A DNA stretch of 64,000 nt, from assembly GCA_050011775.1 (NCBI GenBank), contig JBEKIL010000003.1, forward strand, positions 230,853 through 294,852, in the 5' to 3' direction. Under the pieces are notes generated by a model, which worked only from the letters and a program-made list of their open reading frames with translations, did no database searches and was not told the DNA's origin. Shown one piece after another: positions 7,001 through 45,086 of the stretch. The position numbers and the translations under genes were made by a program. Each line of letters opens with the position of its first letter. Position 1 is the stretch's first letter. This DNA comes from Bacteroidota bacterium. GTDB lineage: Bacteria > Bacteroidota > Ignavibacteria > UBA10030 > CAVZMI01.

Positions 7001-7894
7001 ATGAGCCAATGGTTAAGTAACGGGCCTGTAGTAATCGGCGGTGTAGGGGGCAGCGGTACCAGAGTCATCGCGGAGATATTACGCGAGGTCGGATTCTATC
7101 TGGGAGCCGATTTAAACTTGGCGTTGGATAATCTTTGGTTTACCCTGTTGTTGAAACGGCCCAGGTTGTTTCATAAAAAAAGCGCTTTGAAAGTCGAGGT
7201 ATGCCGGGGTTTTTCAATCCTGGAGAAAATAATGAAAGGCGAGTACGGATTATCATGGCGTGAGTATAAATTTTTAATCTCTGCGATCAGCGAAATGATG
7301 GTTTTTGGCCATGACTATCTTCGGGCTGGCCAAGGCTTCTGGCCTTTGAAGCGTGTAATATCCATGTTATCAAAGAATAAATTGGCCGTGAGGGATTATA
7401 TCGGTTGGGGTTGGAAAGAACCGAATACACATATTTTCATTGAGTATTTGGCTGAGTATTTCAGCAAATTAAAATATATCCATGTCATCAGACATGGTCT
7501 GGATATGGCTTATCACAATAATCAATCCCAGTTATACAATTGGGGAAATCTTTTTGGAGTAGAAAAGCCAAAGACTTTGAAAGATCTTCCAGTTGCATCT
7601 CTTGAATATTGGATTAAAGCGAATCAAAAAGCCATACGGCTGGGTAAAAATATTTTGAAGGAGCGATTTTTGTTAATTAACTTTGACCAGCTATGTGAAA
7701 TCCCTAAAATGGAGGTAGAAAAAATTTTTTCTTTTCTGGAATTTCAAACCAACGATATTGATTTTGTTGACAGAATATGCCTGATTCCTCGAAAACCATC
7801 ATCGATCGGACGATATAAAAATCACGATTTAGCATGCTTTCCCGAACGAAGTCTTGATGAAGTAAGGAAACTTGGATTTAATATTGAAGAATAG
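7001..7894 (+). CDS. putative sulfotransferase (Sulfotransfer_3-like)
   Basis: 5'-PSB-like P-loop 'PVVIGGVGGSGTRVIAEIL' and 3'-PB-like 'WGWKEPNTHIFIEYL'. The same pair of motifs occurs in the paralog at 16833. Confidence 0.55.
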   Translation: MSQWLSNGPVVIGGVGGSGTRVIAEILREVGFYLGADLNLALDNLWFTLLLKRPRLFHKKSALKVEVCRGFSILEKIMKGEYGLSWREYKFLISAISEMMVFGHDYLRAGQGFWPLKRVISMLSKNKLAVRDYIGWGWKEPNTHIFIEYLAEYFSKLKYIHVIRHGLDMAYHNNQSQLYNWGNLFGVEKPKTLKDLPVASLEYWIKANQKAIRLGKNILKERFLLINFDQLCEIPKMEVEKIFSFLEFQTNDIDFVDRICLIPRKPSSIGRYKNHDLACFPERSLDEVRKLGFNIEE

Positions 7895-7976
7895 TATTTT
7901 ATTTTCCTATTAAAACAGCTATTCATTATGATCTCCTCTGAATTTCTTATACTCTTTTTATTGCAGAATATTCGTT

Positions 7977-9656
7977 ATGAATAGAATCTTTCTATCCTTA
8001 AGAAATCCTTCTTGGAAAGAGCTTCTCTGCTTGTCTTTAATACTCAATATACTGCTTTTTGGAATATTTTTTTTGTGGATGAATCCCGCCTTTGAAACGG
8101 TGGACGATGTGGGAATGATGTTGACATCTTCAGGGGTGAGAACCGGGGAACCGAGTGAGTATCTTACATTTCCCAGCGTCGTTATTGGAAAAATATTAAA
8201 ACATCTCTATTTGCAGGTTCCACGCATTAACTGGTATCCCGTCTATCTATATTCGATTCATTTTTTATCAATGCTCGTCATTTTATATGCTATTTTAAAA
8301 CTGAGATTTAGCTGGTCACGAATATTTCAGTATGTTGTTCTATTTATTTTTTTCGAGTGCTCGCTTTTGATGCGATTACAATTTACATCGACCGCTATAG
8401 TAATAGCGATAGCCGGTTTCTGCCTGTTCCTGACATCGCTGAGTTTAAAAGACAAAGAAGTCTGGTTTTACCTGGGAGTATCAATCGTAATGATGGTGAC
8501 GGCGGGATTAATCAGGGAAAAGGTTTTTTACTATTTTTTATTGTTGATTGCTCCCTTAGTATTGTTGAAATTCTTCGAGGCAAAGAAGCTCAGGATACCG
8601 ATCTTCTTTGCTTTAACATTATCTCTCTTTTTTATATTCGTGCAATACAATAGTTCCTACTATTCCGGCGATCCGCTATGGAAAGAATTTATTGCGTATA
8701 ACAAAATTAGGGGTCAATTACATCTTTATCCTAAACTTGCTTACAATGAGCACACGAAACCGACGTTCAATAAAATCGGGTGGAGCGAAAATGATTTCTT
8801 GATGTTCCAAAATGTGTTTTTCCCCGACAAAAAAGTATATTCCAGTGAAAATCTGACATTTATTAATGAAAGCCTAAAAAATCAACGAGGCCTCAAAGAA
8901 ACACTCACTGTGCTTTTATATATAATATATCAAAATGTTTTACTCGTAGCTGTTAGTTTCATCTTTTTGTCTTTATCACTTCAATGGGCCGATAAAAGTG
9001 AAAGGAAATTTATTTATTGTATACTTGTTACAATCATCGTGATGTTTATCTATCTTTCGTTCGCCGCCCGGCTACCGTTTCGTATTTTTATGCCGACGTT
9101 ATTATTTTTTAATACTATGTTTCTTTTTGTGCATAAGGATTTTCAATTTTCTGTTTTTAAGGAAGGAAAGCCTACCAAAAAGCGTATGAGCATTGCGGCA
9201 CTATTGTTGGTAGTATTTTTATTATTGCCATTGCACCTATTAATTTTATATAATCAGGGGAAAGCTAACCAGGAGAAGTATCTATCTATGAAGAATGGGC
9301 TGCAATTATTATCTGCTGGAAAAGATAAATTGTATATAGTATGGGGATCGGACGCAATGAACCTTCAAGATACTTCGCCGTTTTCAGATCTAAAAGAATT
9401 TTCCAATTTGAACTTTGTGTTTGCAGGGAGATTACACGATCCCTTCAATAAAAGAATACTTGCAAATTTCGGAGTTGAAAATGTTTACCTCTCCTTCACC
9501 AGGGAGACGAATATATTTCTTATTATGTACAATGATCTAATGTACAAGGATATGTTGAGCAAGTTTATAATGGAGCATTTCCAAAAAAGTGTCGAGTTTA
9601 TAGTTGTCGATAAGTATAAGAACATGGGCATATATAAAATGGCTGTAGCCAATTAG
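7977..9656 (+). CDS. large polytopic membrane protein, possible GT-C-type glycosyltransferase or polymerase (family unassigned)
   Basis: 559 aa, >12 hydrophobic segments, acidic 'ETVDDVGMM' in the first loop, very AT-rich gene. No confident family assignment. Confidence 0.4.
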   Translation: MNRIFLSLRNPSWKELLCLSLILNILLFGIFFLWMNPAFETVDDVGMMLTSSGVRTGEPSEYLTFPSVVIGKILKHLYLQVPRINWYPVYLYSIHFLSMLVILYAILKLRFSWSRIFQYVVLFIFFECSLLMRLQFTSTAIVIAIAGFCLFLTSLSLKDKEVWFYLGVSIVMMVTAGLIREKVFYYFLLLIAPLVLLKFFEAKKLRIPIFFALTLSLFFIFVQYNSSYYSGDPLWKEFIAYNKIRGQLHLYPKLAYNEHTKPTFNKIGWSENDFLMFQNVFFPDKKVYSSENLTFINESLKNQRGLKETLTVLLYIIYQNVLLVAVSFIFLSLSLQWADKSERKFIYCILVTIIVMFIYLSFAARLPFRIFMPTLLFFNTMFLFVHKDFQFSVFKEGKPTKKRMSIAALLLVVFLLLPLHLLILYNQGKANQEKYLSMKNGLQLLSAGKDKLYIVWGSDAMNLQDTSPFSDLKEFSNLNFVFAGRLHDPFNKRILANFGVENVYLSFTRETNIFLIMYNDLMYKDMLSKFIMEHFQKSVEFIVVDKYKNMGIYKMAVAN

Positions 9657-9715: not shown

Positions 9716-10882
9716 GTGAGAATACCATTTAACAAACCTTATATAACGGGGAAAGAATTATCATATATTTACGATGCGATACAACGCGGTCATCTATCAG
9801 GAAACGGCGAGTATACAAAGAAATGTCAATCCTGGCTGATTGAGAACATCGGCAGTAAAAAAGCACTATTGACTAATTCCTGTACCGCGGCATTGGAGAT
9901 GACCGCCGTCCTCGCGGATATTCAGCCGCATGATGAAATAATCATGCCGTCCTATACTTTTGTTTCGACCGCCAATGCTTTCGTATTGCGGGGCGGAGTC
10001 CCGGTATTTGTCGATATTCGCCCGGATACTTTGAATATTGATGAGACAAAAATCGAAGCAGCCATTACGGAAAGAACAAAAGCCATCGTTCCGGTGCATT
10101 ATGCAGGAGTGGCCTGTGAGATGGATGCAATCATGGCGATTGCTGAAAAGTATAACCTGTTGGTTATCGAAGACGCTGCTCACAGCATCATGTCGCGATA
10201 TAAAGGTCGGCTACTGGGAAGTATCGGACATTTGGCCGCATTGAGTTTTCATGAAACGAAGAATATTATCTCCGGAGAAGGCGGAGCATTATTGATCAAC
10301 GATCTCCGTTTTGCAGAAAGAGCGGAGATTATTTGGGAAAAGGGGACGGACCGGAGCAAATTTTTTCGGGGCGAAGTCGATAAATATACCTGGCTCGATA
10401 TCGGTTCCTCATATCTGCCGAGTGAAATTATCGCTGCCTTCTTATGGGCTCAAATGGAACAGGCGGAATCATTGGTTGCATCCCGGCTTAATATTTGGAA
10501 CACCTATCACAAGGCTTTTCAAAAATTTGAGATGGATAAACTGATCAGGCGCCCGATCATTCCAATTGACTGTACTCATAACGGACATATGTATTTTTTA
10601 TTGCTACCCGATCTTCAATGCCGTAATGCATTTATTGCTTTTTTAAAAGAAAACGGGATCCATGCGGTTTTTCATTATATCCCGCTTGATAGATCGCCCG
10701 GAGGTACTAAATTCGGCAGGAAACATGGGGAAATGAAAATAACATATGAGATAAGCGATAGGTTGGTGAGATTACCGTTCTATCTTGAATTAGACGAAAT
10801 GTCCATCAATTATATTATAAATATAATCACCAGGGCATTGACGTGCCCCACAATAGTAAATACTTCTCCGCAGAGAGCCTGA
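9716..10882 (+). CDS. DegT/DnrJ/EryC1/StrS-family PLP-dependent sugar aminotransferase (WecE/ArnB-like)
   Basis: 'IPFNKPYITGKELSYIYDAIQRGHLSGNGEYTKKCQ...', 'SFHETKNIISGEGGALLIND' (PLP-lysine region), 388 aa. Confidence 0.9.
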   Translation: MRIPFNKPYITGKELSYIYDAIQRGHLSGNGEYTKKCQSWLIENIGSKKALLTNSCTAALEMTAVLADIQPHDEIIMPSYTFVSTANAFVLRGGVPVFVDIRPDTLNIDETKIEAAITERTKAIVPVHYAGVACEMDAIMAIAEKYNLLVIEDAAHSIMSRYKGRLLGSIGHLAALSFHETKNIISGEGGALLINDLRFAERAEIIWEKGTDRSKFFRGEVDKYTWLDIGSSYLPSEIIAAFLWAQMEQAESLVASRLNIWNTYHKAFQKFEMDKLIRRPIIPIDCTHNGHMYFLLLPDLQCRNAFIAFLKENGIHAVFHYIPLDRSPGGTKFGRKHGEMKITYEISDRLVRLPFYLELDEMSINYIINIITRALTCPTIVNTSPQRA

Positions 10883-10913: not shown

Positions 10914-12119
10914 ATGAAAATAAAGAACACATTTTTACAATTTATGAAAAAGGAAAAATTGAACTCGTATTTGAGTTTAATCACTAAGAAAAGTACTATC
11001 ACATTCTCTATTATCACATTATTAGCGTTTTGTATTTTTTTTAATCAAGCGAGTTGCAGGATAATTCGTTCTGACCTGGGTGCTCATATCAAGTTCATGA
11101 AACAACATTTTGAACAAGGAACGAGACTCGATCATCCATTTTTTCACTATGTTACTTACTATATATCACAGCTATTTTCCTTTAATCTGGTGGCCACGGC
11201 AATTGTTATCTTAACATTATCTGTCTTAATTAGTGCGATTATAATTTTTTTAATATTAAATGAATCTCTTCGGAATGACTATTCCGAAAATATTATTTTA
11301 TTTTTTACTTTTTGTCTGATGATCGTTTCGGCTATTTATTTGCCCTTTTTTAATAAAAATATTTACCTCGGACAAAGTTCACCGAATGTATGGCATAATC
11401 CAACCACGATAGTCGTAAAACCTTTTGCATTTTTATCGATTCTTTTATTCATCTATTTGTTGAATATAGAGAATACCAAGAAATTCATAATATTTTCTAT
11501 TCTAGAAGCGGCTTTGATTGCTATAAGTATATCTGTCAAACCAAATTTTTTTATGTCATTTTTCCCAGCAGCATATATTTTTTTATTGTTAAGGGTTAAT
11601 CTTTTCAAAAAGTATTTTTGGAAGTTTACCTTGATCTCGATACCGGCGTTGGCCGTTCTCGTATGGGAATATTTTATGAGATTCGGAGAGGGAGGAGAAA
11701 GCAAGATTATAATTGATTTTTTAGGAGTCTGGAGCCATTATACTCCAAATGTTTTGGTATCGTTGCTATTACTGATAGCTTTTCCAATTTCTGTGCTTAT
11801 TTTTTATTTTAAAAAGGTTATCAAGAATGATTATTTAGTTTTAAGTTGGCTGGTATTTTTCATTGCGTTGATTCAATACTCTATATTTGCCGAAGCAGGT
11901 CGGCACCATTATCACGGAAATTTTGGCTGGGGGAGGCAGATAATACTTCCAATGGTATTTACTTTTTCAGTAGTAGAATTTATGAAATTGATCAAGGAAC
12001 CACATGGAAACAAATGGGGCAAATATAAAAAATATTTTGTTTCGCTCTGTTTTTCCTTGCATGTAATTTCAGGTCTATGTTATTTGGTAATTATGTACAT
12101 CACGAGGAGTTTCCATTAA
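10914..12119 (+). CDS. polytopic membrane protein, possible O-antigen polymerase or GT-C-like (unassigned)
   Basis: 401 aa, ~11 hydrophobic segments, AT-rich; no recognisable soluble domain. Confidence 0.4.
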   Translation: MKIKNTFLQFMKKEKLNSYLSLITKKSTITFSIITLLAFCIFFNQASCRIIRSDLGAHIKFMKQHFEQGTRLDHPFFHYVTYYISQLFSFNLVATAIVILTLSVLISAIIIFLILNESLRNDYSENIILFFTFCLMIVSAIYLPFFNKNIYLGQSSPNVWHNPTTIVVKPFAFLSILLFIYLLNIENTKKFIIFSILEAALIAISISVKPNFFMSFFPAAYIFLLLRVNLFKKYFWKFTLISIPALAVLVWEYFMRFGEGGESKIIIDFLGVWSHYTPNVLVSLLLLIAFPISVLIFYFKKVIKNDYLVLSWLVFFIALIQYSIFAEAGRHHYHGNFGWGRQIILPMVFTFSVVEFMKLIKEPHGNKWGKYKKYFVSLCFSLHVISGLCYLVIMYITRSFH

Positions 12120-12121
12120 CG

Positions 12122-13081
12122 ATGAAACAAAAACTTTTTAATTTGTCGAAACTCCTTATTAGCGGGGCATTAATTTATTTTTTATTGAAAGTTCTCGATG
12201 TCAAGCGTATTTGGCTGACCTTACAAAATGTAAATATTGGATACACTGCCCTGGCCTTTCTTTGTTCCGGATTCGTCTTACCGATCCTAGCATTTCGTTG
12301 GAAACGGGTATTGAAAGCCTCTGAAATTCATGTTCCCGTTACCAGGGTTTTACGGATAAATCTCATAGGGATTTGTTCCAGTAATTTTTTCCCGGGTTTG
12401 TTTGGTGGAGATTTAATACGCCCCCTCTATTTGATTCAAGATTATCAGAATAAAAAAATTCCTTTATATGCTTCCGTTTTTTTTGAACGGATATGCGGAT
12501 TTATGGGGATACTGCTTCTGGGATTGATAAGCGGCAGCTGGTTGGCCTTTATGATAAAAGAGAGGTATTATATTTTGATAACCGGCGTAATCTGCGCAGG
12601 TCTTATTCTTACGTTTTTCTTTTTCAATTGGATAGATATATCTAAAATATCATTACCCCGATTCTTGAAACGGTTTCAATCTTTCGTGCATCGTTTTTAT
12701 TCGAGTTTCATACTGTATGCAAAGGACGGACGATTATTGGCGGAAACTGTCGGTTGGAGTTTATTGTCCCAAATCATCAGTATATTGATGTATTGGATAT
12801 TACTGGCCGGAACGGGGAGCGTTGTCAATCCGATGATGGTAATAATTGCCGTCTCTCTGGCATGGCTTGTAGCGTTAATCCCGGTTTCTCTGAACGGATT
12901 GGGTCTACGCGAGGGGAGTATGGTGTATTTACTGACCCGGTTCGGAGTGGCTCCCGATAGAGCTGGAATTGCGGTTCTGCTGGGTCTATTACCAACTGTT
13001 TTTTTTTCTATTATTGGAGCCGCGATGTTGACTTCCGGGATCAATCTCAAGAAAATAATGAAAGAAGTAAAATACCAGTAA
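12122..13081 (+). CDS. UPF0104 / LPG-synthase-TM 'flippase-like' membrane protein
   Basis: 'LISGALIYFLLKVLDVKRIWLTLQNVNIGYTALAFLCSGFVLPILAFRWKRVL' is typical of the lysylphosphatidylglycerol-synthase TM region family that accompanies GT2 enzymes. ATG 12122 chosen rather than listed 12077 to avoid a 42-nt overlap. Confidence 0.6.
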   Translation: MKQKLFNLSKLLISGALIYFLLKVLDVKRIWLTLQNVNIGYTALAFLCSGFVLPILAFRWKRVLKASEIHVPVTRVLRINLIGICSSNFFPGLFGGDLIRPLYLIQDYQNKKIPLYASVFFERICGFMGILLLGLISGSWLAFMIKERYYILITGVICAGLILTFFFFNWIDISKISLPRFLKRFQSFVHRFYSSFILYAKDGRLLAETVGWSLLSQIISILMYWILLAGTGSVVNPMMVIIAVSLAWLVALIPVSLNGLGLREGSMVYLLTRFGVAPDRAGIAVLLGLLPTVFFSIIGAAMLTSGINLKKIMKEVKYQ

Positions 13082-13146: not shown

Positions 13147-13986
13147 ATGAAAAGATTGATAATCAATCTTTCTCCTACCGGTATGGTTCCCACTAAGAAA
13201 ATGACGCCTCATGTTCCTGAGAGTCCGGCGGAAATTATCAAAGATGTGCTGAAATGTACAACTCTCGGAGTGTCGATGGCGCATTTGCACGCACGCGATG
13301 CCAATGGAGCCCCTACCTATAAAAAAGAAATTTATAATGAGATTATAACCGGGATTAAAGAAAAAAATAAAGATTTGGTGGTTGTAGTATCGACAAGCGG
13401 CAGGACTTTTACTGAATTCTGGCAGCGTTCGGATGTGCTTGACCTTGAAGGAGAAGTAAAACCGGATATGGCCAGTTTGACTTTGAGTTCATTGAATTTC
13501 ATAAAGACGGCCAGTATGAACAGTCCTGATATGGTCATCAAACTGGCTGAAAAGATGCAGGGAAATGGCATCAAACCCGAGCTGGAAGTTTTTGACTTCG
13601 GAATGGTTAATTTTGCGCATTATCTGATTAAGAAAGAAATAATACAGCCGCCATATTACTTTAATATTCTTTTAGGTAATATTGCAACGGCACAGGCTAA
13701 ATTATTACAACTGGGTTTGATCATATCGGAACTGCCGGAAAATTCTGTCTGGTCGATAGCCGGTATTGGTGAATGCCAATGTAGAATGAATGCGATCAGT
13801 ATTCTTGAGGGCGGAGGAGTACGCGTCGGACTTGAAGATAACATCTGGTATGACGAAGAGCGGACTACTCTGGCCACTAATTATGCTCTTGTTGAGCGCC
13901 TCGTTAAGATTGCAACGGCAATCGGACGTCCGATCGCCACTCCACTGGAAGTGCGGGAGTTGTTGAAATTACGGCCTCCCGGGTAA
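13147..13986 (+). CDS. BKACE-family (3-keto-5-aminohexanoate cleavage enzyme-like, DUF849) protein
   Basis: 'INLSPTGMVPTKKMTPHVPESPAEIIKDVLKCTTLGVSMAHLHARDANG' matches the BKACE TIM-barrel N-terminal signature. SD 'GAGGAGG' upstream. Confidence 0.75.
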   Translation: MKRLIINLSPTGMVPTKKMTPHVPESPAEIIKDVLKCTTLGVSMAHLHARDANGAPTYKKEIYNEIITGIKEKNKDLVVVVSTSGRTFTEFWQRSDVLDLEGEVKPDMASLTLSSLNFIKTASMNSPDMVIKLAEKMQGNGIKPELEVFDFGMVNFAHYLIKKEIIQPPYYFNILLGNIATAQAKLLQLGLIISELPENSVWSIAGIGECQCRMNAISILEGGGVRVGLEDNIWYDEERTTLATNYALVERLVKIATAIGRPIATPLEVRELLKLRPPG

Positions 13987-14997: not shown

Positions 14998-15133
14998 AAA
15001 CGGATGCCCTCCCCCGTTAAAAATGAAAGTAAAAAGGAATCTCCGGATCGATTCAATTTTGAATGTGAAAGAAAAAATCTGAGATTGTCACCTCGGCTCC
15101 CTTTTTAAATTGCTCTTAAAGGAGGGTGGAATT

Positions 15134-16825: not shown

Positions 16826-16832
16826 TACGAAA

Positions 16833-17597
16833 GTGATGAAGATGCCCGGGAATCAAAATATAATTGTTTTAGGAATGCACCGCAGTGGAACTTCATTAAT
16901 AGCAAGCATATTATACAAAATTGGATTTTTTATGGGGGAGGAACTTTTAGGGAAAAATATTTCCAACCCCCTGGGCCATTTCGAAGATCAAAATTTAATT
17001 GACTTGAATGATCAAATCCTTTCGGCGGCTGGCGGGACATGGTACGATCCCCCGGAGAGGGGAGCGATTCTCAATCAGTCCGGCAAATTTCAACAGGAAA
17101 TAGTTTCATCGGTAGCTGCGATGCCATCCGGATTATGGGGATGGAAAGACCCGCGATTGTGTTTGACCATCGAATTATTTTTACCATACTTAGACACTCC
17201 GGTGTTTATCATATGCCGTCGGGAACCATCATCGATTGCAGAGTCGCTTTATCGTCGGAATCGCATCGACTATAAACAAGGTTTGTCAGTTGTCGATATA
17301 TATCAAAAAAGGATTGACCTTTTTTTGGAAAAATATCCCGATCATCGCCGGATGATCATTCGCTACGAGGAAATTTGCTCCAATCCAGACCAAGCCGTAC
17401 GTCAGATCATCGATTTTCTCAAGCTGGAAATACAACCCAAAATATTCCGGGAAGCAGTGAAGTCTGTAGTATCAAGGACAAGAATCCATAGGATGGAAAG
17501 AAGAATAGAGAGAAATGATTTGATAAAAACCGCCTTCTTTCAATTTTTTAAAAATCCGAAAGTTTTTTTTATCAAACTTAAAAATTACCTGACCTAA
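16833..17597 (+). CDS. sulfotransferase family protein (Sulfotransfer_3-like)
   Basis: 'NIIVLGMHRSGTSLIASIL' (5'-PSB), 'WGWKDPRLCLTIELFLPYL' (3'-PB-like). Paralog of 7001. Confidence 0.65.
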   Translation: MMKMPGNQNIIVLGMHRSGTSLIASILYKIGFFMGEELLGKNISNPLGHFEDQNLIDLNDQILSAAGGTWYDPPERGAILNQSGKFQQEIVSSVAAMPSGLWGWKDPRLCLTIELFLPYLDTPVFIICRREPSSIAESLYRRNRIDYKQGLSVVDIYQKRIDLFLEKYPDHRRMIIRYEEICSNPDQAVRQIIDFLKLEIQPKIFREAVKSVVSRTRIHRMERRIERNDLIKTAFFQFFKNPKVFFIKLKNYLT

Positions 17598-23395: not shown

Positions 23396-24208
23396 TTGTC
23401 GAGAGTGATAATTCTGAATACACGACAAAAAAATCATCGCCGCCCGTGGCTTGCCGCCTTTATCTCCTATCGGGATATTATTCGTGAATTTGCAGTTGCC
23501 GACTTTCGACTCAGGTATCATGATTCGGTGCTGGGGTATGTCTGGTTTTTGTTGAGTCCCGCACTGATGTTCAGTATATATTATCTTATTTTCACTAGGG
23601 TAATATTTGTCAGAATTCCGGATTATGCTCTGTACTTATTGCTCGGAATCATAGGTTATAATTTTTTTAAAGATTGCACATTCAGCGCAATGTACAGTTT
23701 GCATTCAAAAGCATCCATCATTAAAAAAGTCTATTTTCCCCGTTACCTGATTGTGTACTCGTCCACGCTCACGGCTTTTTTCTCGCTTTTTGCAAATTTT
23801 TGCATTGTGTTGACTGTATGCTTTATTATCCATGGTGTTTCGCCGCTTGTTTTCCTGATTCCTATTCCTGTAATCTGTCTGATTCTTTTTTCAGCGGGAG
23901 TAGGTTTTTTGCTGACGATACTTTATGTGCACTTCCGGGACCTCGGTCAAATCTGGGATGTCCTCGTACTTGCAATTTTTTGGATTACGCCTGTCGTCTA
24001 TAATATTGACGCCCTGCCGGAATCAACCCAGATCATCGTATTCCTGAATCCACTTGCACGGATTTTCATGCTCTTTCGCCATTACCTTTTATATGATTAT
24101 TTCGATCTCCGATTTTTGCTGATAACAATCGGTATTTCCCTGTTGATATATGTTGTTGGATTTTATGTATTTCGAAAATATCAGGACCAGATAGCGGAAT
24201 ATATTTAA
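23396..24208 (+). CDS. wzm: ABC-2 type polysaccharide/O-antigen export permease (Wzm/TagG/KpsM family), pair 1
   Basis: 'RDIIREFAVADFRLRYHDSVLGYVWFLLSPALMFSIYYLIF', 6 TM, ~260 aa. Confidence 0.8.
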   Translation: MSRVIILNTRQKNHRRPWLAAFISYRDIIREFAVADFRLRYHDSVLGYVWFLLSPALMFSIYYLIFTRVIFVRIPDYALYLLLGIIGYNFFKDCTFSAMYSLHSKASIIKKVYFPRYLIVYSSTLTAFFSLFANFCIVLTVCFIIHGVSPLVFLIPIPVICLILFSAGVGFLLTILYVHFRDLGQIWDVLVLAIFWITPVVYNIDALPESTQIIVFLNPLARIFMLFRHYLLYDYFDLRFLLITIGISLLIYVVGFYVFRKYQDQIAEYI

Positions 24209-24220
24209 TCGGTATAAATC

Positions 24221-24943
24221 ATGATCGTTCTGGACGACATAACAAAGATATTTAAGATACCGCATGAGCGGAAGAGAACACTCTATCATCGGTTGGTTTC
24301 AATCGTGAAAAGACGATATGATTTTGAACCGCTCCATGCACTCCGCAATATTTCACTCTCTATAGCCGACGGAGAATTCATCGGAATCATCGGGAGAAAT
24401 GGATCCGGGAAGTCGACGCTTCTCAAAATAATTTCACGGATTTATTGCCCGAGCAGCGGAAAAGTCCATGTGAAAGGTGATGTATTTCCGATGTTGGAGC
24501 TGGGCATCGGTTTTCAACCGGAATTCTCATGTCGCGAGAATGTCTTTCTTCAGGGTGTGGTGCTCGGTTTCACGCGAAAAGAAATCGTGAAACGGTTTGA
24601 CGAGATAATTGCGTATGCAGAATTGGAACGATTTGTCGACGCCAAATTGGGCACACTGTCTTCGGGAATGCTTATGAGACTGGGCTTTTCGATCGCCGCG
24701 CAGTCTGATGCTTCAATTTTTCTTGTCGATGAGGCTTTTGCCGTCGGCGATCGGGCGTTCGGTGCTAAATGCGAACAGAAGTTCAGGCAATTCAAATCGG
24801 AAGGAAAAACGGTCTTACTTGTTAGTCACGATCTTCACACAGTTCAGCATTTTTGCTCACGGGTGATTGTTCTTCAAGACGGACAAATCGTCAATGAAGG
24901 AGATCCGCAAGCAATGATCGCCTGGTACAGCGCAAAATTATGA
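24221..24943 (+). CDS. wzt: polysaccharide ABC exporter ATP-binding protein (Wzt/TagH-like, short form without C-terminal binding domain), pair 1
   Basis: Walker A 'GIIGRNGSGKSTLLKII', signature 'LSSGMLMRLGFSIAA', Walker B 'IFLVDEAFAVGD'; 240 aa. Confidence 0.85.
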   Translation: MIVLDDITKIFKIPHERKRTLYHRLVSIVKRRYDFEPLHALRNISLSIADGEFIGIIGRNGSGKSTLLKIISRIYCPSSGKVHVKGDVFPMLELGIGFQPEFSCRENVFLQGVVLGFTRKEIVKRFDEIIAYAELERFVDAKLGTLSSGMLMRLGFSIAAQSDASIFLVDEAFAVGDRAFGAKCEQKFRQFKSEGKTVLLVSHDLHTVQHFCSRVIVLQDGQIVNEGDPQAMIAWYSAKL

Positions 24944-31000: not shown

Positions 31001-31019
31001 ATGCTTCTTAATATATAGA

Positions 31020-34761: not shown

Positions 34762-34775
34762 CAGGGATATCAACA

Positions 34776-35324: not shown

Positions 35325-35398
35325 ATTCTAAATTGTAAATTCTTTGAAAACGAGTTTACCGCAGCGCTTTGAATTCTAATCACTAATCGATTTAAATC

Positions 35399-35464: not shown

Positions 35465-35465
35465 A

Positions 35466-35810: not shown

Positions 35811-36063
35811 ACTTTCATATAGCATCTACGCATCATGAAGTTCGCCGGAATGAGGTCCTGGTTTAAATCAGTCTAAATATTAGTGCTTTAATATTAATTA
35901 AGAAATCATTATATTTATAAAAGAATTTACGACTTGTAAATTCTTTATTAAAATCTATTTTAGTAATATACAAGGATGCCGGGTACTGAAGATACTCCAC
36001 TGTAAGAGTATAACTGCCCTGAATTCCGATCAGCAATAATGGTTTTTATAGTAAGGATGGAAA

Positions 36064-38936: not shown

Positions 38937-39665
38937 TTGCATATGAATATTCCGACACTATTTCACATCACGCATTGGAAAGCTGGATCGCAATGGGTTG
39001 CAAAAGTACTCAAGGAGCTTTTCCCTGATGAAATCATTCCACCAAGAATTGCGGCTGCCCAGGTTCTCCAGATGCCGATACAAGAACACAAAATCTATTT
39101 GTGTGTCTATATTGCGAAAGGACAATGGGACCGAATCCAACTTCCAAAAGAGACACGACGGTTTCTTATTATTCGCGATCTCCGGGATACACTGGTCTCG
39201 GCATATTTCTCAATGCGATATAGCCATCCCATCATGATAAATCAAATGGAAGAATGGCGTAATTTTTTAAGGACAAATAGTTTGCGTGATGGCATGGTGT
39301 ATTTAATGGAAAATTGGCTTCCGGACAGCGCGAATATACAGCGATCCTGGTTGAAAGCAGGGGAGAAATTTTTCCGTTTTGAAGATATTTTAAAAAGCGA
39401 TATTTTTTACTTCGAGAAAATACTTATTGACCATTGTCAGTTACCCATTGAAAAAGCAATGCTCCGGGATGTAGTTCAACGAAATAGATTCATCACGTTA
39501 AGTAAAGGCCGGAATCCGGGTGCAGAAGATCGGTTGTCGCATTATCGAAAAGGACTTCCGGGCGATTGGCAGAACTATTTCAGTGAAGAAACAAAAAAGG
39601 AATTCAAGAAACGTTTCAATGATGTTCTCAATCTGACCGGGTATGTGGACAACGATACCTGGTGA
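38937..39665 (+). CDS. putative sulfotransferase (Sulfotransfer_1-like)
   Basis: 'HITHWKAGSQWV' resembles 5'-PSB 'PKSGTTWL'; 'RDLRDTLVSAYF' resembles 3'-PB 'R.P.D..VS.Y'; 242 aa. Confidence 0.55.
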   Translation: MHMNIPTLFHITHWKAGSQWVAKVLKELFPDEIIPPRIAAAQVLQMPIQEHKIYLCVYIAKGQWDRIQLPKETRRFLIIRDLRDTLVSAYFSMRYSHPIMINQMEEWRNFLRTNSLRDGMVYLMENWLPDSANIQRSWLKAGEKFFRFEDILKSDIFYFEKILIDHCQLPIEKAMLRDVVQRNRFITLSKGRNPGAEDRLSHYRKGLPGDWQNYFSEETKKEFKKRFNDVLNLTGYVDNDTW

Positions 39666-39693
39666 AAAGTATTTCGATAAAGATAATGGGAAG

Positions 39694-40488
39694 ATGACTA
39701 AACTATTCGTATGTTTCCGTGAGTTATGGAATAGGCGCGAATTATTATTTTCGCTTACAAAGCGGGATATTAAATCGCGATATCAACAGACTTTTTTTGG
39801 AATGGGCTGGTCTTTGTTTCAGCCGGTAATGCAGGCTGTAGTCTATACAGTTGCCTTCTCGTTGATACTTAAAGTGCCGATCCGCGAAGGAATACCGTAC
39901 ATGAATTTTGTGTTCTGTAATCTCACACTCTGGACCTATTTTGCATCAACAACCCTCAGCGCAATGAACAGCATACGTATGAATTCCGCTTTGATAACAC
40001 GGGTAGCGTTCCCGCGTGAAATCATTCCTTTTTCGACCATTCTGTCAGGACTATTCGATTTCATAATTATGTTTATCGTCCTGGTTATTCTAAACGCTTT
40101 TGTCGGCTTTTATCCAAATATCCGATTTCTGTATTTGCCCACGATTATCTTAATTGAAATTCTTTTCATTCTGAATATTTCATTAGTATTAAGTGTGATT
40201 TCGATTGTACGTCGTGATATTACCCATGTCGTGAATTATTTTATTATGCTTTATATGTTTATATCGCCGGTCTTTTTTCCGTTCTCGGCACTACCGGCTG
40301 AAATACAGCGATATTATTTTCTTAATCCGATGGGGACTCTTCTTGAAGGATTTAAGAATATTATATTTCTTGACAAAGAACCCCGCTGGTTTGCATTGAT
40401 GATGGTGATCATAATACTGATCGTTCTTTTTTTCCCCTGTTATATTTTTTTCAAAAAAGCTGAACGTTCCTTCACGGATGTACTATGA
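39694..40488 (+). CDS. wzm: ABC-2 type polysaccharide export permease (Wzm family), pair 2
   Basis: 'KRDIKSRYQQTFFGMGWSLFQPVMQAVVYTVAFSLIL', 6 TM. ATG 39694 avoids overlap with the upstream gene. Confidence 0.8.
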   Translation: MTKLFVCFRELWNRRELLFSLTKRDIKSRYQQTFFGMGWSLFQPVMQAVVYTVAFSLILKVPIREGIPYMNFVFCNLTLWTYFASTTLSAMNSIRMNSALITRVAFPREIIPFSTILSGLFDFIIMFIVLVILNAFVGFYPNIRFLYLPTIILIEILFILNISLVLSVISIVRRDITHVVNYFIMLYMFISPVFFPFSALPAEIQRYYFLNPMGTLLEGFKNIIFLDKEPRWFALMMVIIILIVLFFPCYIFFKKAERSFTDVL

Positions 40489-41885
40489 TTGCACTCCGTT
40501 TCAATAATGTCACGAAAATTTATGACCTGCAGGCGGGTCGGGACACTTTTCTCACGACTCTCAGGTTCACTCTGGGCAATGTTAAGCGGAATGATTTCTT
40601 CCATGCCGTTCGTGATATAAATATTGAAATAAAAAAAGGCGAAGCAGTCGGTATCATCGGACGTAATGGAGCGGGGAAAAGTACACTGCTGAAACTTGCG
40701 GTCGGGATTACCTATCCGACATATGGATCGGTTGAAGTGAACGGTTCGATTGCCGCACTCATAGGACTTGGGGCAGGATTCAATCCCGATTTCACAGGTC
40801 GGGAAAATATTTTCCTTAATGCTTCGCTATTGGGCGTTCCAAGGAAGAGAGTGGAGGAACGTTTTTCCGAGATTGTCGCCTTTGCAGAATTAGAAGATTT
40901 TATCGATGTTCCGGTTAAGCGTTACTCTTCGGGGATGTACGCGCGGCTCGGATTTGCCATCGCGACTCACGTCGATGCCGATATCATTGTCATCGATGAA
41001 GTACTGGCTGTAGGAGACATATATTTTCAACAAAAATGCTTTTTATTTTTAGAATCGCTTCTTCAAAAAGGGAAAACTCTTCTATTTGTGAGTCATGATG
41101 TAGGCAGTGTGCGTGAACTTTGCAATTCTGTAATATTGCTTGAGAAGGGCGTGAATATATTTCATGGAGATCCAAGAGAAGGTGTAAATAGATACCTGCT
41201 ATTACAACAGAAAAAGGATACTGCAAAGGATTCCGAGAATGAAATTCGCGTGGAATCGAAGACTAGTACTGCATCAAATGCGGATATTACGGTTGATAAT
41301 AAATCGCAGGAAGGGAAGAGGAAATTCCTGCCGCGCCAATGGTCCGACATCGATGCACTGGATCTTTCTTCCTCTGCTGTTCTTATTGGTGAGAGAGATG
41401 TTCATTGGAAGGGCGTCGCGATCTATGATAAGGACGGAAGTCGCTGCAATTCTTTTTCCATGGGGGATGAAGCGTGGTTCTATTATGAGTTTGAGGTTCT
41501 GCGCGATATACTTACTCCGTTTGCCGGCGTTGCGATTTATGATAGGAAAGGAATTCTTGTTCACGGAAAGACGACATATCAGCATGGAATACAGCCGTGC
41601 CGTACAGTTGGAAAAAACGCGACGATCCGGGTTATTCAATCGATAAAGTTTCCATTGTCACCCGATACGTATACTTTTGAGCTATGGCTCAGCATGATGG
41701 AGCCGGAGACTCATGAACAGCTTCAACATCTTACAGCAGAACAAATTCAGGCAGGTGTTACCAAACTGATGCATATAAGCAGAGCAGGTTCGATCATTAT
41801 TACCCCTAATCCGAACAATATTGCTATCAATAATTTTGGTATAGTCGACTTGCCGGGGAGTGGAGATCTGACAATACTCCCCTGA
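40485..41885 (+). CDS. wzt: polysaccharide ABC exporter ATP-binding protein with C-terminal Wzt_C-like carbohydrate-binding domain, pair 2
   Basis: Walker A 'GIIGRNGAGKSTLLKL', signature 'YSSGMYARLGFAIAT', 'IIVIDEVLAVGD'. Extra ~200-aa C-terminal beta-rich domain ('HWKGVAIYDKDG...VAIYDRKGILVHG'). Confidence 0.85.
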   Translation: MIALRFNNVTKIYDLQAGRDTFLTTLRFTLGNVKRNDFFHAVRDINIEIKKGEAVGIIGRNGAGKSTLLKLAVGITYPTYGSVEVNGSIAALIGLGAGFNPDFTGRENIFLNASLLGVPRKRVEERFSEIVAFAELEDFIDVPVKRYSSGMYARLGFAIATHVDADIIVIDEVLAVGDIYFQQKCFLFLESLLQKGKTLLFVSHDVGSVRELCNSVILLEKGVNIFHGDPREGVNRYLLLQQKKDTAKDSENEIRVESKTSTASNADITVDNKSQEGKRKFLPRQWSDIDALDLSSSAVLIGERDVHWKGVAIYDKDGSRCNSFSMGDEAWFYYEFEVLRDILTPFAGVAIYDRKGILVHGKTTYQHGIQPCRTVGKNATIRVIQSIKFPLSPDTYTFELWLSMMEPETHEQLQHLTAEQIQAGVTKLMHISRAGSIIITPNPNNIAINNFGIVDLPGSGDLTILP

Positions 41886-41933: not shown

Positions 41934-44900
41934 ATGATCACGAAAGCCGGAAAAAATCTTGCCTATATTTATTCAACTCCCCGCTCTGGCTCGACATTGC
42001 TTGCGGCGATGCTCGGCGGTCACGATGACGTCTATGTCCCTCCCGAACCATGGTTTCTACTTCTGCTTCATTCTCTTCTCTCTTCCGATGATGCGATTGT
42101 TGCACATTATGACGAAAATCTGGCACGCCGCGCATTTCGGGAATTGTCTCCGGAGAATATCATCACAGAAGCCTCGCAAAACTATGCATTGACGGTATAT
42201 AATAGTCTGTTGGAGAAAAACAAAAAAAAATATTTTGTCGATAAAACTCCCCGATATTACCATGTCCTTGAATGGATCGATGCGCTATTCCCTGAAGCCA
42301 AAAAAATACTCTTAGTCCGAAATCCACTCGATGTCTTTGCATCATATAAAGATGTGTGGGGAATCGAAGTAGAGGAAATGATCGGTGAACAGCTCTCTCC
42401 ATTTTCATTCGATGCCACGATAGCATATTTCAGATTTCAGGATTTTTATAAGCGATCGCATACAAATATGATCCGGATTTCCTATGAGAATCTTGTGATT
42501 GATCCCCATACCGTGATGCACGGGGTATGCGGTTTTTTAGGATTGGCATTTAACGAGAGGATGATATCCTATGGAGAGAATAAAGAACTATTGACACGGT
42601 ACGCAAATTCCAGCATGGGCGATCGAAAGGTGCTTTCCGAAATAACTCCGCATCGAAAATCATGCGGAAAATGGAAAACAATCCTGACCCCCTTAGAAAC
42701 TCAGAAGATTGTGACGACGCTTGGGACAAGGATATTCGAAGAGAACGGTTATAAGACCGAATTACAGGAAGCTCTGTCATTTGCTTCGCTGCAATATGAG
42801 AAGGTCGACCGCGAAGGAAGAAAGGAAGAACTCTTTAAACAGTATCAGACCTATGTCGAGACGCGGCTTTCATCATCTGCAGCTCTTTCCAATGTGGCTC
42901 TCACAAGGAAGAATGAAGAGCTCTTAAAATATATAACTACAATAGAGAAGGATCGGCAGGATCGACTCGAGGCAATCCTACGTTATCAGGAAAAACTGGA
43001 TAACTCTCATAATGCAATTGAGCAAAAGGAAATACGAAATCAACAACTTCTTGAGGAATCACTCAGGATTCAGGATCAACTGGTAGACTCTCGTAATGCA
43101 ATTAAGCAAAAAGAAGTACGAATTCGACAACTTCTGGAGGAATCACGTGGGTTTCAGAATCAACTGGCAGACTCTCGTGATGCAATTGGGCAAAAAGAAA
43201 TACGAATTCAACAACTTATGGCGGGAACGTACGGGTTTCAACATCAACTGACGGAACTCCGGGATGTCATAGCACAAATCGAAAAAGACAGACAGGCCAG
43301 ACTCGATTCGATACTCTATTACCAAAAAGAACTGGCGGAAGTACAGCGGAGGAATCAGGAACTTATCGATACGATTTCTTCGATTGAAAACGACAGGCGG
43401 GCCAGACTTGAGTCGATACTCTATTACCAAACAGTATTGTCGGATTTACAACATCGGTACGATGTGATCGAAAAAGATCATGCAAATCTTTTGATGTTAG
43501 TCGAAACATTGAATGGTCATATTGCCGAACTCGGGACATTGGAAACATCGTTACGCCGGTTCATTGAGTTGTCGTTACGCAGCATCGGTCTCTATGAATT
43601 TATTTTACGCCACCGAAAAAAGCTTAACCGGGTTTTTCTGTTCGTATTGCACGCGGGGGCCGGATTAGCTTCTGTTATCCGCAAATTCCATCGCAAAAGG
43701 GAGCTTGGTGTAGTGAAAGCAGACACCGCTCCTTTACAAAAACAGACTCTTAAAGAAACATTAAACTCACCCGAGGTCAATGCTTATGTCAATTCACGGT
43801 TAATTCAGGGTGATCTGGAAGACAGTGTAATACACCATTTCCTCGATAATAATTCTTCGTTTTCATCCGTAATCTGTCTCATGCCGGACCCAAATGATCT
43901 TCAATTACTGATTTTTCTTAAAGAACTCGGGAAATCTGTATTTGTTCTTCATTCTCCATCCGAAAATTTAAGTCTCATTAAACCGAATATTTCTTTTACA
44001 GCATGCATCGCCGATGAATGGTTCATGAAATATGGACGGTTGGAACTTTCAAAATATGATGTTCTTTTCATAGGAAAGAATTGTTCAGGTTCGTATTTCC
44101 GACTATTAAAAAATTATGTATCACCTCGAACAGCGATAATTCTTCATAATACCAGTTTTTCGGAAGAGTTATTTTTACTTGAGGGTAGGATTAAAGTGAC
44201 AATCGGCAGCTTTGTTTCTCTGTCTCCTTGCTCCGATTCAAAGGTATTATTCAAGGTATGCGAAGAACGCCGAACAATCGATAATGCACAATGGCCGTGG
44301 AAGCAGTTCAAGTCTGAAATCCCATCGAACATGCCCTCCGGCAGGCCCTGGCCGAGAATATCGGTCGTTACGGCCACACTCAATCAGGGCGATTTCCTTG
44401 AAGAGACAATTCGCTCGGTGCTGCTGCAACGTTATCCGAACCTTGAGTACATTCTCCTCGATGGGGGTTCCACCGATACAACACCGGAGATTCTCAACCG
44501 GTATAAAAATGAGTTCGCAGTGTGTCTAAGTCAAAAGGATAAAGGTCAGGCCGATGCGTTGAACAGGGGTTTCAATCATGCAACCGGAGAAATTCTTGCA
44601 TGGCTGAATAGCGACGACCGATATCTTCCCAACACATTTCTTGATGTTGCGCTGGCATATGATTTGTATGCCTGTGATATGGTTGCAGGGGGATGTGCTC
44701 TTGTCAATGATAACGAAGCAATTCCCTGGAGTGTACATCACACTTTATTACCTCTGGGGGAAAAAGTCCGGCTTCCACTCGATAATCTTCTCGATATCGA
44801 TGGTTCCTGGCAAAAAGGCGATTTCTTTTATCAACCGGAGGTGTTCTGGAGCAGGAACATCTGGGAAAAATCCGGGAGACGAATTGATAGTACTCTCCAT

Positions 44901-45086
44901 TACAGCATGGATTATGAGCTCTGGGTAAGAATGGCGATCGCTGAAGCATCCATTGTTCATATTCCCGAGACGCTTGCGTATTTTCGAATGCATCAACAGC
45001 AAAAAACAAGCGGTAAGGATTTACCGTTTCTTCCGGAGTTACGAAAGTTGAATAAAAGGCTTCTTAAAGAATTGAGAAAAAAATAA
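41934..45086 (+). CDS. multidomain protein: N-terminal sulfotransferase, central tandem coiled-coil repeats, C-terminal GT2 glycosyltransferase (candidate chain-length regulator and terminator)
   Basis: N-terminal 'IYSTPRSGSTLLAAMLGG' (5'-PSB) and 'DKTPRYYHVLEWIDALFPEAKKILLVRNPLDVFAS'. Residues ~335-520 are heptad-like 20-aa repeats ('DSRNAIKQKEVRIRQLLEESRGFQNQLA' x3; 'IEKDRQARLDSILYYQKEL' x3). C-terminal 'ISVVTATLNQGDFLEETIRSVLLQRYPNLEYILLDGGSTDTTPEIL', 'LNSDDRY' (GT2). Confidence 0.7.
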   Translation: MITKAGKNLAYIYSTPRSGSTLLAAMLGGHDDVYVPPEPWFLLLLHSLLSSDDAIVAHYDENLARRAFRELSPENIITEASQNYALTVYNSLLEKNKKKYFVDKTPRYYHVLEWIDALFPEAKKILLVRNPLDVFASYKDVWGIEVEEMIGEQLSPFSFDATIAYFRFQDFYKRSHTNMIRISYENLVIDPHTVMHGVCGFLGLAFNERMISYGENKELLTRYANSSMGDRKVLSEITPHRKSCGKWKTILTPLETQKIVTTLGTRIFEENGYKTELQEALSFASLQYEKVDREGRKEELFKQYQTYVETRLSSSAALSNVALTRKNEELLKYITTIEKDRQDRLEAILRYQEKLDNSHNAIEQKEIRNQQLLEESLRIQDQLVDSRNAIKQKEVRIRQLLEESRGFQNQLADSRDAIGQKEIRIQQLMAGTYGFQHQLTELRDVIAQIEKDRQARLDSILYYQKELAEVQRRNQELIDTISSIENDRRARLESILYYQTVLSDLQHRYDVIEKDHANLLMLVETLNGHIAELGTLETSLRRFIELSLRSIGLYEFILRHRKKLNRVFLFVLHAGAGLASVIRKFHRKRELGVVKADTAPLQKQTLKETLNSPEVNAYVNSRLIQGDLEDSVIHHFLDNNSSFSSVICLMPDPNDLQLLIFLKELGKSVFVLHSPSENLSLIKPNISFTACIADEWFMKYGRLELSKYDVLFIGKNCSGSYFRLLKNYVSPRTAIILHNTSFSEELFLLEGRIKVTIGSFVSLSPCSDSKVLFKVCEERRTIDNAQWPWKQFKSEIPSNMPSGRPWPRISVVTATLNQGDFLEETIRSVLLQRYPNLEYILLDGGSTDTTPEILNRYKNEFAVCLSQKDKGQADALNRGFNHATGEILAWLNSDDRYLPNTFLDVALAYDLYACDMVAGGCALVNDNEAIPWSVHHTLLPLGEKVRLPLDNLLDIDGSWQKGDFFYQPEVFWSRNIWEKSGRRIDSTLHYSMDYELWVRMAIAEASIVHIPETLAYFRMHQQQKTSGKDLPFLPELRKLNKRLLKELRKK
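42936..43494 (+). repeat. in-frame ~60-nt tandem DNA repeats encoding the coiled-coil segment of the 41934 protein
   Basis: For example 'GACTCTCGTAATGCAATTAAGCAAAAAGAAGTACGAATTCGACAACTTCTGGAGGAATCA' versus 'GACTCTCGTGATGCAATTGGGCAAAAAGAAATACGAATTCAACAACTTATGGCGGGAACG'. Confidence 0.7.

Follow-up and report, generated by a model that had tools for sequence, protein, structure and literature searches.

Chain termination in the glycan assembly pathways dependent on ATP-binding cassette (ABC) transporters is exemplified by WbdD (E. coli O9a and Klebsiella O3) and WbbB (Klebsiella O12 and Raoultella terrigena), which carry a coiled-coil molecular ruler and work together with a Wzt ATPase bearing a carbohydrate-binding module (CBM) (background in PMC11231755). 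Among marine Gammaproteobacteria, polysaccharide sulfation is described for the very large sulfated-capsule cluster of Cobetia marina KMM 1449, which contains glycosyltransferases (GTs), an ABC exporter, cysNC together with cysD, and sulfotransferases (STs) (PMC11766843), and is reported for a comparable sulfated capsule cluster of Vibrio sp. KMM 8419 (PMC11641403). In the wb(salmo) cluster of A. salmonicida, ORF19 ("Hyp") encodes a small ST-domain protein located between Wzt and WbbB; its authors could not explain the presence of an ST, and the O-antigen structure contains no sulfate (PMC4483657). Here, we addressed four STs encoded in a 64-kb stretch of DNA (64,000 nucleotides, hereafter "the window"; contig JBEKIL010000003.1, positions 230,853 to 294,852 of the forward strand), two of which, ST-C (open reading frame (ORF) 38937) and ST-D (the N-terminal domain of ORF 41934), are tightly linked, both physically and evolutionarily, to a CBM-bearing exporter and a coiled-coil polymerase protein. 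The window comprises ~49 genes, all residing on one strand according to the ORF list, and judging by their predicted products is a glycan-assembly supercluster from an Ignavibacteriota bacterium. In the best explanation overall, to which we assign a probability of roughly 0.55 and which includes the roles proposed below for the four STs, its predicted product is a sulfated, heavily methylated surface polysaccharide (or several of them) made by the ABC transporter-dependent route.

The region around ST-C and ST-D is similar to the WbdD and WbbB systems in its predicted ABC-dependent pathway, the CBM-bearing Wzt and the catalytic domain joined to a long stretch predicted to be a coiled coil, and shares with WbbB the location of polymerase GT module(s) on the same polypeptide as the putative terminator domain (ORF 41934). 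Unlike both, the putative terminator position of ORF 41934 is taken by an ST of the type using 3'-phosphoadenosine 5'-phosphosulfate (PAPS) instead of kinase/methyltransferase or beta-Kdo transferase, and a second ST (38937) accompanies the exporter. The Cobetia and Vibrio clusters, with Kps-type group-3 export and backbone sulfation, also differ from the window with its four STs, two Wzm/Wzt pairs, CBM, coiled-coil fusion and Ignavibacteriota origin. The likeness between the A. salmonicida cluster and the window is one of gene order, and the coiled-coil role falls there to a homologue of WbbB instead of an ST fusion. The elements of this region (module 2) are listed below, where PSB and 3'-PB denote the 5'-phosphosulfate-binding and 3'-phosphate-binding motifs.

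38943..39665, forward strand: sulfotransferase C (ST-C), ~240 aa, SULT-like; PSB loop with K15/S18, 3'-PB R80...S88, signature RKGLPGDW
39643..40488, forward strand: Wzm2, ABC-2 permease (ABC2_membrane 1.3e-15)
40485..41885, forward strand: Wzt2, ATPase with C-terminal CBM (ABC_tran 4e-18, Wzt_C 2.7e-14)
41934..42788, forward strand: sulfotransferase D (ST-D), aa 1-285 of ORF 41934; R17, E38, K104, R129, S137; Sulfotransfer_3 6e-28 (aa 12-208)
42801..43568, forward strand: predicted coiled-coil region, aa ~290-545 of ORF 41934 (composition, heptad periodicity, SMC-model match)
44352..44975, forward strand: GT2 domain, aa 807-1014 of ORF 41934, presumed polymerase module (Glycos_transf_2 6.8e-27, aa 810-937)
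45086..46327, forward strand: GT4 glycosyltransferase, its start overlapping the stop of ORF 41934

The window contains four genuine PAPS-dependent ST domains, for which the PAPS-dependent transfer itself is predicted. All four, including ST-A (7001) and ST-B (16833), exceed the Pfam gathering cut-offs (43.4, 46.7 and 99 bits versus 27 for PF13469; 32.7 bits versus 22 for PF00685), which agrees with the four domains claimed in the initial annotation of this DNA, and the motifs quoted there were all found in the ORFs named. The proposed comparison with Pfam hidden Markov models (HMMs) assigned the ORFs to ST families and not to kinases or AAA proteins. Pfam and NCBIfam scans covered every window ORF of at least 150 aa and found no further ST family in any other of them; nor did family HMMs of 7001 and 38937 detect extra ST copies among six-frame ORFs of at least 60 aa in the window. 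"At least two families" is right and resolves into three lineages by sequence, all of one fold: the distant paralogues 7001 and 16833 make up the first, the N-terminal domain of 41934 belongs with NoeE, the ST of CurM and the tyrosylprotein sulfotransferases (TPSTs), and 38937 resembles cytosolic sulfotransferases (SULTs). The PSB loops (GGSGTR in 7001, HRSGTS in 16833, HWKAGSQW in 38937, PRSGST in 41934) are invariant or nearly so in the family alignments and occupy the strand-1/helix-1 position in the AlphaFold models of 38937 and 7001. The 3'-PB arginine is followed by serine at +8 in 16833 (R130/S138), 38937 (R80/S88) and 41934 (R129/S137), while 7001 has R164 but histidine at +8. Some details of the initial description need correction. 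The pattern "G.SGT..(I/L)" ascribed to both 7001 and 16833 literally fits 7001 only (16833 reads HRSGT), their common core being SGT..I. The motif WGWK(D/E)P does occur in both (WGWKEP and WGWKDP, respectively), though not as a "3'-PB-like" element: it aligns with the catalytic-lysine strand (N/D)K(D/T/S)P, represented by NKDP in TPST and DKSP in CurM. Of the label "Sulfotransfer_3/Stf0-like" the first half stands and the second lacks support. Stf0 (PF09037, cut-off 22) gave no match with 7001 or 16833 at E <= 0.1, and the hit in 41934 (12.9 bits, E = 0.078) spans only 17 P-loop residues.

For 38937, the motifs HWKAGSQWV and RDLRDTLVSAYF and the resemblance to Sulfotransfer_1 were borne out, the Pfam match being 6.6e-8. 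The ORF tool set its start at TTG 38937; homologues begin with MNIP..., so the real start is probably ATG 38943. It shares its last 23 nt with the beginning of wzm2. Members of this family are compact proteins of ~240 aa with invariant HxTHWKAGSQW, IRDLRDTLVSAYF and RKGxxGDW, and the alignment of 27 sequences at 41-50% identity retains PSB Lys/Ser, 3'-PB Arg/Ser and several His without exception. The AlphaFold model (mean confidence, pLDDT, 90) displays a complete ST fold, its top 50 PDB matches are sulfotransferases without exception, and Foldseek relates it to cytosolic SULTs at 3e-7 with TM ~0.6. When the family profile was compared by HHalign with human SULT1E1, 96% probability was obtained over the 3'-PB and region-IV motifs, where R80/S88 align with RNAKDVAVS of SULT1E1 and the signature RKGxxGDWxNxF is aligned as well. 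The likeness to SULT1E1 and SULT7A1 thus covers model superposition and these two motifs; unlike cytosolic SULTs, 38937 is a bacterial protein of ~240 aa with divergent N-terminal half, devoid of the K-T-H strand, and its family is usually fused or adjacent to a CBM. Relative to the Ignavibacteriota metagenome-assembled genome (MAG) MFD04408.bin.2.180, which encodes a protein 95% identical to ORF 41934, the ratio of nonsynonymous to synonymous substitution rates (dN/dS) is 0.25 for 38937 and 0.23 for 41934, indicating purifying selection.

The association with the terminus-binding module became evident from a scan of metagenome contigs with ST-C, which yielded 308 relatives and 80 loci scored by HMMs for Wzm, the nucleotide-binding domain (NBD) of Wzt and the Wzt CBM. 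In 50 of the 80 metagenomic loci, an ST of this type either forms a fusion with a CBM of Wzt type or has one as its neighbour: CBM and ST share one ORF with linkers of 1-35 aa in 34/80, NBD, CBM and ST are combined in one ORF in 4/80, a CBM-bearing Wzt or CBM fragment stands immediately upstream of the ST in 8/80, and a CBM ORF follows it immediately in 4/80 (three as scored plus L031, which was scored CBM-less, yet has a CBM ORF overlapping the end of the ST ORF). In three loci (3/80) an NBD was found in the flank with no CBM, and in 17/80 the CBM was not seen, their flanks being too short to judge. Pfam confirmed the architectures Wzt_C+Sulfotransfer_1 and ABC_tran+Wzt_C+Sulfotransfer_1, as well as fusions of ST with GT2 and with methyltransferase (MT). 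One database relative of ST-C is itself a Wzt_C-ST fusion, and in Methylocaldum and Paraburkholderia the homologues directly follow wzm-wzt(CBM). Locus L031 unites both ST types of module 2: a single polypeptide contains a domain of ST-D type (40% identity over 300 aa, E = 4e-86) as well as one of ST-C type, and an ORF for CBM plus coiled coil comes after it.

In some loci (L025, L033, L023, L024 and L097), a CBM-bearing Wzt is immediately followed by a second CBM fused to ST, so that tandem genes hold two terminus-binding modules.

ORF 41934-45086 (1050 aa) consists of ST, a predicted coiled coil of ~250 aa and GT2, in this order, and lies next to the CBM-bearing Wzt2. The initial annotation had noticed PRSGST and RNPLDVFAS in its N-terminal part, and the ST domain is confirmed. 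The NoeE model matches ST-D at 1.9e-39 (135.5 bits), far below the cut-off of 500 for equivalog NF052394, the best stretch covering model positions 10-145 of 387; ST-D is, on this evidence, a relative of NoeE and not its orthologue. With the rhizobial carbohydrate sulfotransferases of NoeE/NodH type it shares the predicted dependence on PAPS; the fusion to coiled coil and GT2 sets it apart, and it would act on a polymer instead of a lipo-chitooligosaccharide. Among solved structures, its relatives by sequence are the ST of the olefin synthase (OLS, 1e-22), that of CurM (4e-18) and TPSTs (~1e-5; 1.5e-5). PRSGST, the glutamate base E38, DK(T/S)P and VR(N/H)P...S align with CurM/OLS ST (PDB 4GBM, 4GOX) and TPST1/2: R17 falls into the PSB loop, E38 into the catalytic-base position of PPE(L/P), K104 into DKTP, and R129...S137 into the 3'-PB. 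CurM, OLS and TPST act on polyketide beta-hydroxyl or peptide tyrosine, unlike the window enzymes, which sit in a glycan cluster.

The region following ST-D is devoid of proline over aa 254-599; within aa 291-545 Pro+Gly account for 2.7% and charged residues for 43%, the heptad-periodicity z is 5.5, and an SMC model matches aa 283-523. Three (E/N)DRxxRLxxIL repeats, at 42951, 43287 and 43392, are located there. Among 181 homologues of ST-D, mostly proteins of 340-510 aa, 10 of the 12 inspected possess a C-terminal extension of tandem SEADRAARLEVI-type repeats with a basic, hydrophobic or amphipathic tail, and all three found on long contigs (3/3) belong to Wzm/Wzt clusters. The Nitrotoga cluster has the order Wzm, Wzt with CBM, ..., ST-coiled coil, MT, GT2/GT4 (GT2-GT4 polymerase). 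The pair of ORF 41934 and GT4 45086 is kept in locus L006. Proteins related to ORF 41934 over its last 570 aa have GT4 in place of the ST, which shows modular exchange at the N-terminus. By the gene after the ST-C-type one, a coiled-coil protein with the same repeat is encoded in 14 loci; of the 10 such proteins examined, 7 are MT-coiled coil-GT4 or truncated versions of it, six being full-length (~1130-1230 aa), a design resembling that of WbdD/WbbB. The repeat of ORF 41934 is thus common to MT-coiled coil-GT proteins of related loci, and the window protein, to judge by its domains, carries ST where most of them carry MT.

In more general form, (S/E)x(A/N)DRxARLxxI, the repeat occurs in 2-7 copies in the coiled-coil parts of proteins with ST, MT or GT domains that ABC-type glycan clusters of several phyla encode (L006, L007, L010, L015, L017 and 14 of L018-L097) and may represent a conserved "ruler" module variable in copy number.

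The organization of module 2 (ST-C, Wzm2, Wzt2 with CBM, the ST-D/coiled coil/GT2 fusion, GT4) would be compatible with the following scheme. The chain would be polymerised on a lipid carrier by GT2 and GT4, the ST at the end of the coiled-coil spacer would modify the non-reducing terminus at a set chain length, and the CBM of Wzt2 would recognise the modified terminus and admit the chain for export; the same terminus would be acted on by ST-C, among whose relatives fusion to such a CBM is usual. Taken in its narrow form, namely sulfation of the non-reducing terminus by ST-C and ST-D in a module resembling the WbdD/WbbB capped-glycan systems, this reading, built by analogy, falls somewhat short of an even chance. 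We hold as tentative, with the odds leaning further against it, the broader proposal that sulfate is a chain-terminating and export-licensing cap read by the Wzt CBM, and that two widespread uncharacterised families from several phyla serve it: ST-coiled-coil "rulers", with ORF 41934 as the polymerase-fused version, and small SULT-like STs. The "backbone and cap" sulfation suggested in the initial annotation thereby gains comparative support as to 38937 and 41934-N, the sulfated hydroxyls being purely inferred. A methyl-sulfate cap by analogy with the O9a methyl-phosphate was rejected on chemical grounds, alkyl sulfate diesters being reactive alkylating agents.

Four STs and the in-cluster PAPS pathway alone would make the window one more sulfated bacterial polysaccharide locus, albeit the first such one described for Ignavibacteriota within the literature searched, where the query Ignavibacteri* plus sulfotransferase returned nothing relevant. 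The CBM repeatedly fused to ST and the ST on a coiled-coil spacer predict in addition a sulfate-based stop-and-export signal, which would escape bulk structural analyses, and constitute a testable proposal on how bacteria measure and export surface glycans. If true, sulfate would become the fourth capping chemistry beside methyl, methyl-phosphate and beta-Kdo, could explain orphan ST genes in O-antigen clusters, e.g., of A. salmonicida, where no sulfate in the bulk O-antigen is the expected appearance of a sub-stoichiometric cap, and would supply enzymes for site-specific terminal sulfation in glycoengineering. Sulfate caps, ST-coiled-coil terminators and CBM-ST fusions were not described in the literature searched, which excluded the principal 2019 terminator census, making priority uncertain.

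Several observations weigh against the sulfate cap or the assignments behind it. The need of a non-reducing-end cap for CBM binding and export is suggested by genomic association; around CBM-ST fusion genes, the nearest 7 kb are often free of ABC transporter genes; ten of the 80 loci contain no CBM with at least 1.5 kb available on both sides (11 as scored, less L031); and in L016 and L017 the ST-coiled-coil homologues accompany a Wzt without CBM. The coiled coil of ORF 41934 is a prediction from composition, periodicity and the SMC-model match, and the hydrophobic/basic segment behind it (aa 564-582, nt 43623-43679) could be a true transmembrane helix complicating topology. In 7001, position 172 is occupied by His where the family consensus has the 3'-PB Ser. 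Finally, the related loci mostly have a methyltransferase on the coiled-coil protein, so that the capping group there may be methyl, with the ST-C-type enzyme serving for decoration only. This last point leads to an explanation in which all four STs decorate internal repeat-unit sugars of one or two polysaccharides, the coiled coil is only a scaffold or oligomerisation device, and any cap is methyl attached by one of the numerous methyltransferases. Known sulfated capsule clusters combining PAPS genes, STs and ABC transporters do have backbone sulfate, e.g., Rha2S in Cobetia marina KMM 1449 (PMC11766843). At least 11 methyltransferase domains are encoded in the window, an MT is present in related loci on the coiled-coil protein whose gene neighbours that of the ST-C-type enzyme, and STs of 7001 type are found in both Wzx-type and ABC-type clusters. 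What such decoration leaves unexplained is the fusion or adjacency of the ST-C family to the terminus-binding CBM in 50/80 loci, or even its fusion to whole Wzt, and the WbdD-like C-terminal repeat coiled coil so regular in ST-D homologues; we regard it as rather unlikely, although it comes next after the terminal sulfation.

Much less probable is that at least one ST acts on a non-glycan acceptor (protein tyrosine, lipid or small metabolite), or that the sulfate added by ST-D is a leaving group as in CurM/OLS. No solved structures are closer to ST-D than the activating STs of curacin and olefin synthases, the folds nearest to that of 7001 are those of tyrosylprotein sulfotransferases, and some homologues of ST-D are named "protein-tyrosine sulfotransferase" by JGI; against this, all neighbours are glycan-assembly genes, the window has no gene for a polyketide synthase, for lipids or for a peptide precursor, ST-D forms one polypeptide with GT2 and best fits the model of NoeE, a carbohydrate sulfotransferase, and homologues of every family whose context was examined are housed in polysaccharide clusters. 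The least credible option is that some STs are catalytically dead adaptors or regulators binding PAPS or PAP, e.g., ST-C as a partner of the Wzt CBM. It would account for the Sulfotransfer_1 profile being covered by ST-C only in its C-terminal 60%, for the absence of the K-x-H catalytic-His strand of cytosolic SULTs, with HHalign aligning from the 3'-PB onward only, and for the His replacing the 3'-PB Ser in 7001. The 27 aligned members of the ST-C family nevertheless keep PSB Lys/Ser, 3'-PB Arg/Ser, RKGxxGDW and several His, and ST-C itself combines dN/dS of 0.25 with a model of complete ST fold at pLDDT 90.

The two remaining STs belong to the first module, together with its exporter.

7001..7894, forward strand: sulfotransferase A (ST-A), 297 aa; PSB loop G16-GSGTR21, Lys strand W136-GWKEP141, 3'-PB R164
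16833..17597, forward strand: sulfotransferase B (ST-B), 254 aa; PSB loop H16-RSGTS21, E51, K105, 3'-PB R130 and S138
23396..24943, forward strand: Wzm1 and Wzt1, ABC-2 glycan exporter (ABC2_membrane and ABC_tran matches)

ST-A, with the motif GGSGTRVI, matches Sulfotransfer_3 at 6e-11 and Sulfotransfer_1 at 1e-5, and its family has more than 3,000 database relatives with invariant GGxGGSGTR, WGWKEPNxH and RxGxDxA; R164 is invariant too and aligned to VRHP of OLS. For the AlphaFold model (pLDDT 92), the top 50 PDB matches are sulfotransferases throughout (TPSTs, STs of OLS and CurM, Stf9, Stf1), tyrosylprotein sulfotransferases being nearest in fold. One homologue (L013) resides in a locus laid out as the window is, with sulfur-compound permeases, CysD, CysNC, GT, ST, a second ST and an ABC-2 exporter, and another (L014) has a Wzx-type flippase and a second ST as neighbours; given these contexts of ABC and Wzx types, the family looks like a general polysaccharide decorator. 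ST-B (motif HRSGTSLI; Sulfotransfer_3 6e-12, Sulfotransfer_1 4e-9) is distant from ST-A (BLASTP 4e-6; HHalign against the 7001 family profile 97% probability, E = 1e-10). Its family numbers 20,626 cluster representatives at E <= 1e-3 with invariant G19, S21, E51, K105, R130 and S138; all 30 aligned relatives tested (30/30) belong to Sulfotransfer_3, and the family profile matched ~39 sulfotransferases in PDB. Designed repeat proteins that appeared as top single-sequence PDB matches of 7001 and 16833 were judged spurious because of many weak repeats and no significant stretch, profile searches giving sulfotransferases, and a phycobilisome linker-like protein, the top match of the A3 profile, was discarded as having no significant stretch. 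Based on their location in the first module, amid genes for sugar synthesis and for glycosyltransferases, ST-A and ST-B probably sulfate repeat-unit or side-chain sugars of this module in the cytoplasm, prior to export by Wzm1/Wzt1; among the roles proposed here, this is the one we consider most likely.

The cluster encodes its own PAPS pathway, in which, according to the family assignments, CysD and CysN would produce adenylyl sulfate (APS) and CysC would convert it to PAPS, the sulfate donor.

2387..2923, forward strand: CysC, APS kinase (APS_kinase 1.6e-52; TIGR00455 202.7 bits, cut-off 138.7)
2956..3837, forward strand: CysD, sulfate adenylyltransferase small subunit (PAPS_reduct 3.6e-40; NF003587 345.9 bits, cut-off 195)
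4262..6067, forward strand: CysN GTPase subunit fused to a truncated APS-kinase-like domain (TIGR02034 347 bits, cut-off 336)

The kinase-like tail of the CysN fusion (aa ~454-601) covers only positions 4-105 of the 152-position Pfam profile, being devoid of the last ~65 positions of the CysNC model (~47 of the Pfam kinase profile), and its Walker A is degenerate (GKKDSGKK versus GxxGxGK[ST]). The tail is probably non-catalytic, which fits with the existence of the separate CysC gene. A dedicated supply of PAPS by NodPQ (CysDN/C) encoded next to an ST is likewise a property of rhizobia. Interleaved with cysC, cysD and cysN are two paralogous genes of "23S rRNA intervening-sequence protein" (PF05635, four-helix bundle; 1989-2345 and 3834-4229; 3.6e-31 and 2.6e-34). 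The first gene of the window (35-751) encodes an ABC permease of SsuC/TauC/SaoP type (sulfonate, taurine or nitrate family) and not the sulfate permease CysW, so the cluster may draw on organosulfonates; the genes of its transport partners are located upstream, outside the window.

The overall gene order begins with this SsuC/TauC-type permease, GT4, CysC, CysD, the CysN fusion, GT2, ST-A and a protein with 10 transmembrane helices (10-TM), and continues with a WecE-like dTDP-4-amino-4,6-dideoxyhexose transaminase, a second 10-TM protein, a flippase-like protein and a beta-keto-acid cleavage enzyme (BKACE). ArnC-like GT2, NeuD/VioB-type acetyltransferase, GT2, ST-B, a GT2-GT4 protein, GT4 and NadE come next, followed by Wzm1 and Wzt1, then by GTs with four methyltransferases and a GT-C protein. 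From ST-C onward the order is Wzm2, Wzt2 with the Wzt_C CBM, ORF 41934 and GT4; GT4 45086 is followed by methyltransferases, another two GT-C proteins, an acyltransferase and additional GTs. The two exporters are not equivalent: a purpose-built CBM HMM found no CBM in the Wzt1 ATPase (240 aa), nor a separate CBM polypeptide for it in the window. The sole Wzt_C-type CBM within the window is that of Wzt2 (aa 302-412, nt 41388-41720; 53.8 bits versus cut-off 30.4), whose best solved relatives are the Wzt chains of A. aeolicus (8e-65).

A few other genes deserve mention. At least 11 domains of S-adenosylmethionine-dependent methyltransferases are encoded at 29105-35324 and 46344-58225, including FkbM type and an MT-GT2 fusion, so that the product is probably heavily O-methylated besides being sulfated. 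Three polytopic proteins of ~910-930 aa (36064-38862, 48163-50964 and 53548-56274) have weak PMT_2 (GT-C) matches; together with the ArnC-like polyprenyl-phosphate sugar synthase (14053-14997) and the flippase-like protein (12077-13081) they make up the parts list of "three-component" systems for extracytoplasmic side-chain glycosylation. BKACE (13147-13986, 4e-81), located near the WecE-like transaminase (9716-10882) and the NeuD/VioB acetyltransferase (15110-15772), may make an unusual N-acyl substituent for an amino sugar. Four ORFs (7977-9656, 10914-12119, 30834-32771 and 25164-25691) have no Pfam/NCBIfam match: the first three, each predicted to have ~10 membrane helices, may be polymerase, ligase or GT-C-like proteins, and the last is a soluble 175-aa protein encoded just after wzt1. 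NadE, a full-length glutamine-dependent NAD+ synthase (704 bits), is encoded at 21708-23360 between GT genes and wzm1, and on two further contigs (JGI) an unrelated gene for a CBM-sulfotransferase fusion is likewise directly preceded by a NadE gene; this linkage may be either coincidental or recurring. As to non-coding elements, an Rfam scan of the whole window gave no match, and a scan of 33-46.5 kb for sigma-70 promoters and terminators revealed no enrichment over shuffles. The only large intergenic gap of the window (35324-36064, 740 nt) contains a perfect GC-rich 10-bp hairpin at 35783-35805, AGGTCGAGAC-GGC-GTCTCGACCT, with a weak T tail, possibly the border where the transcription units of the two exporter modules are separated.

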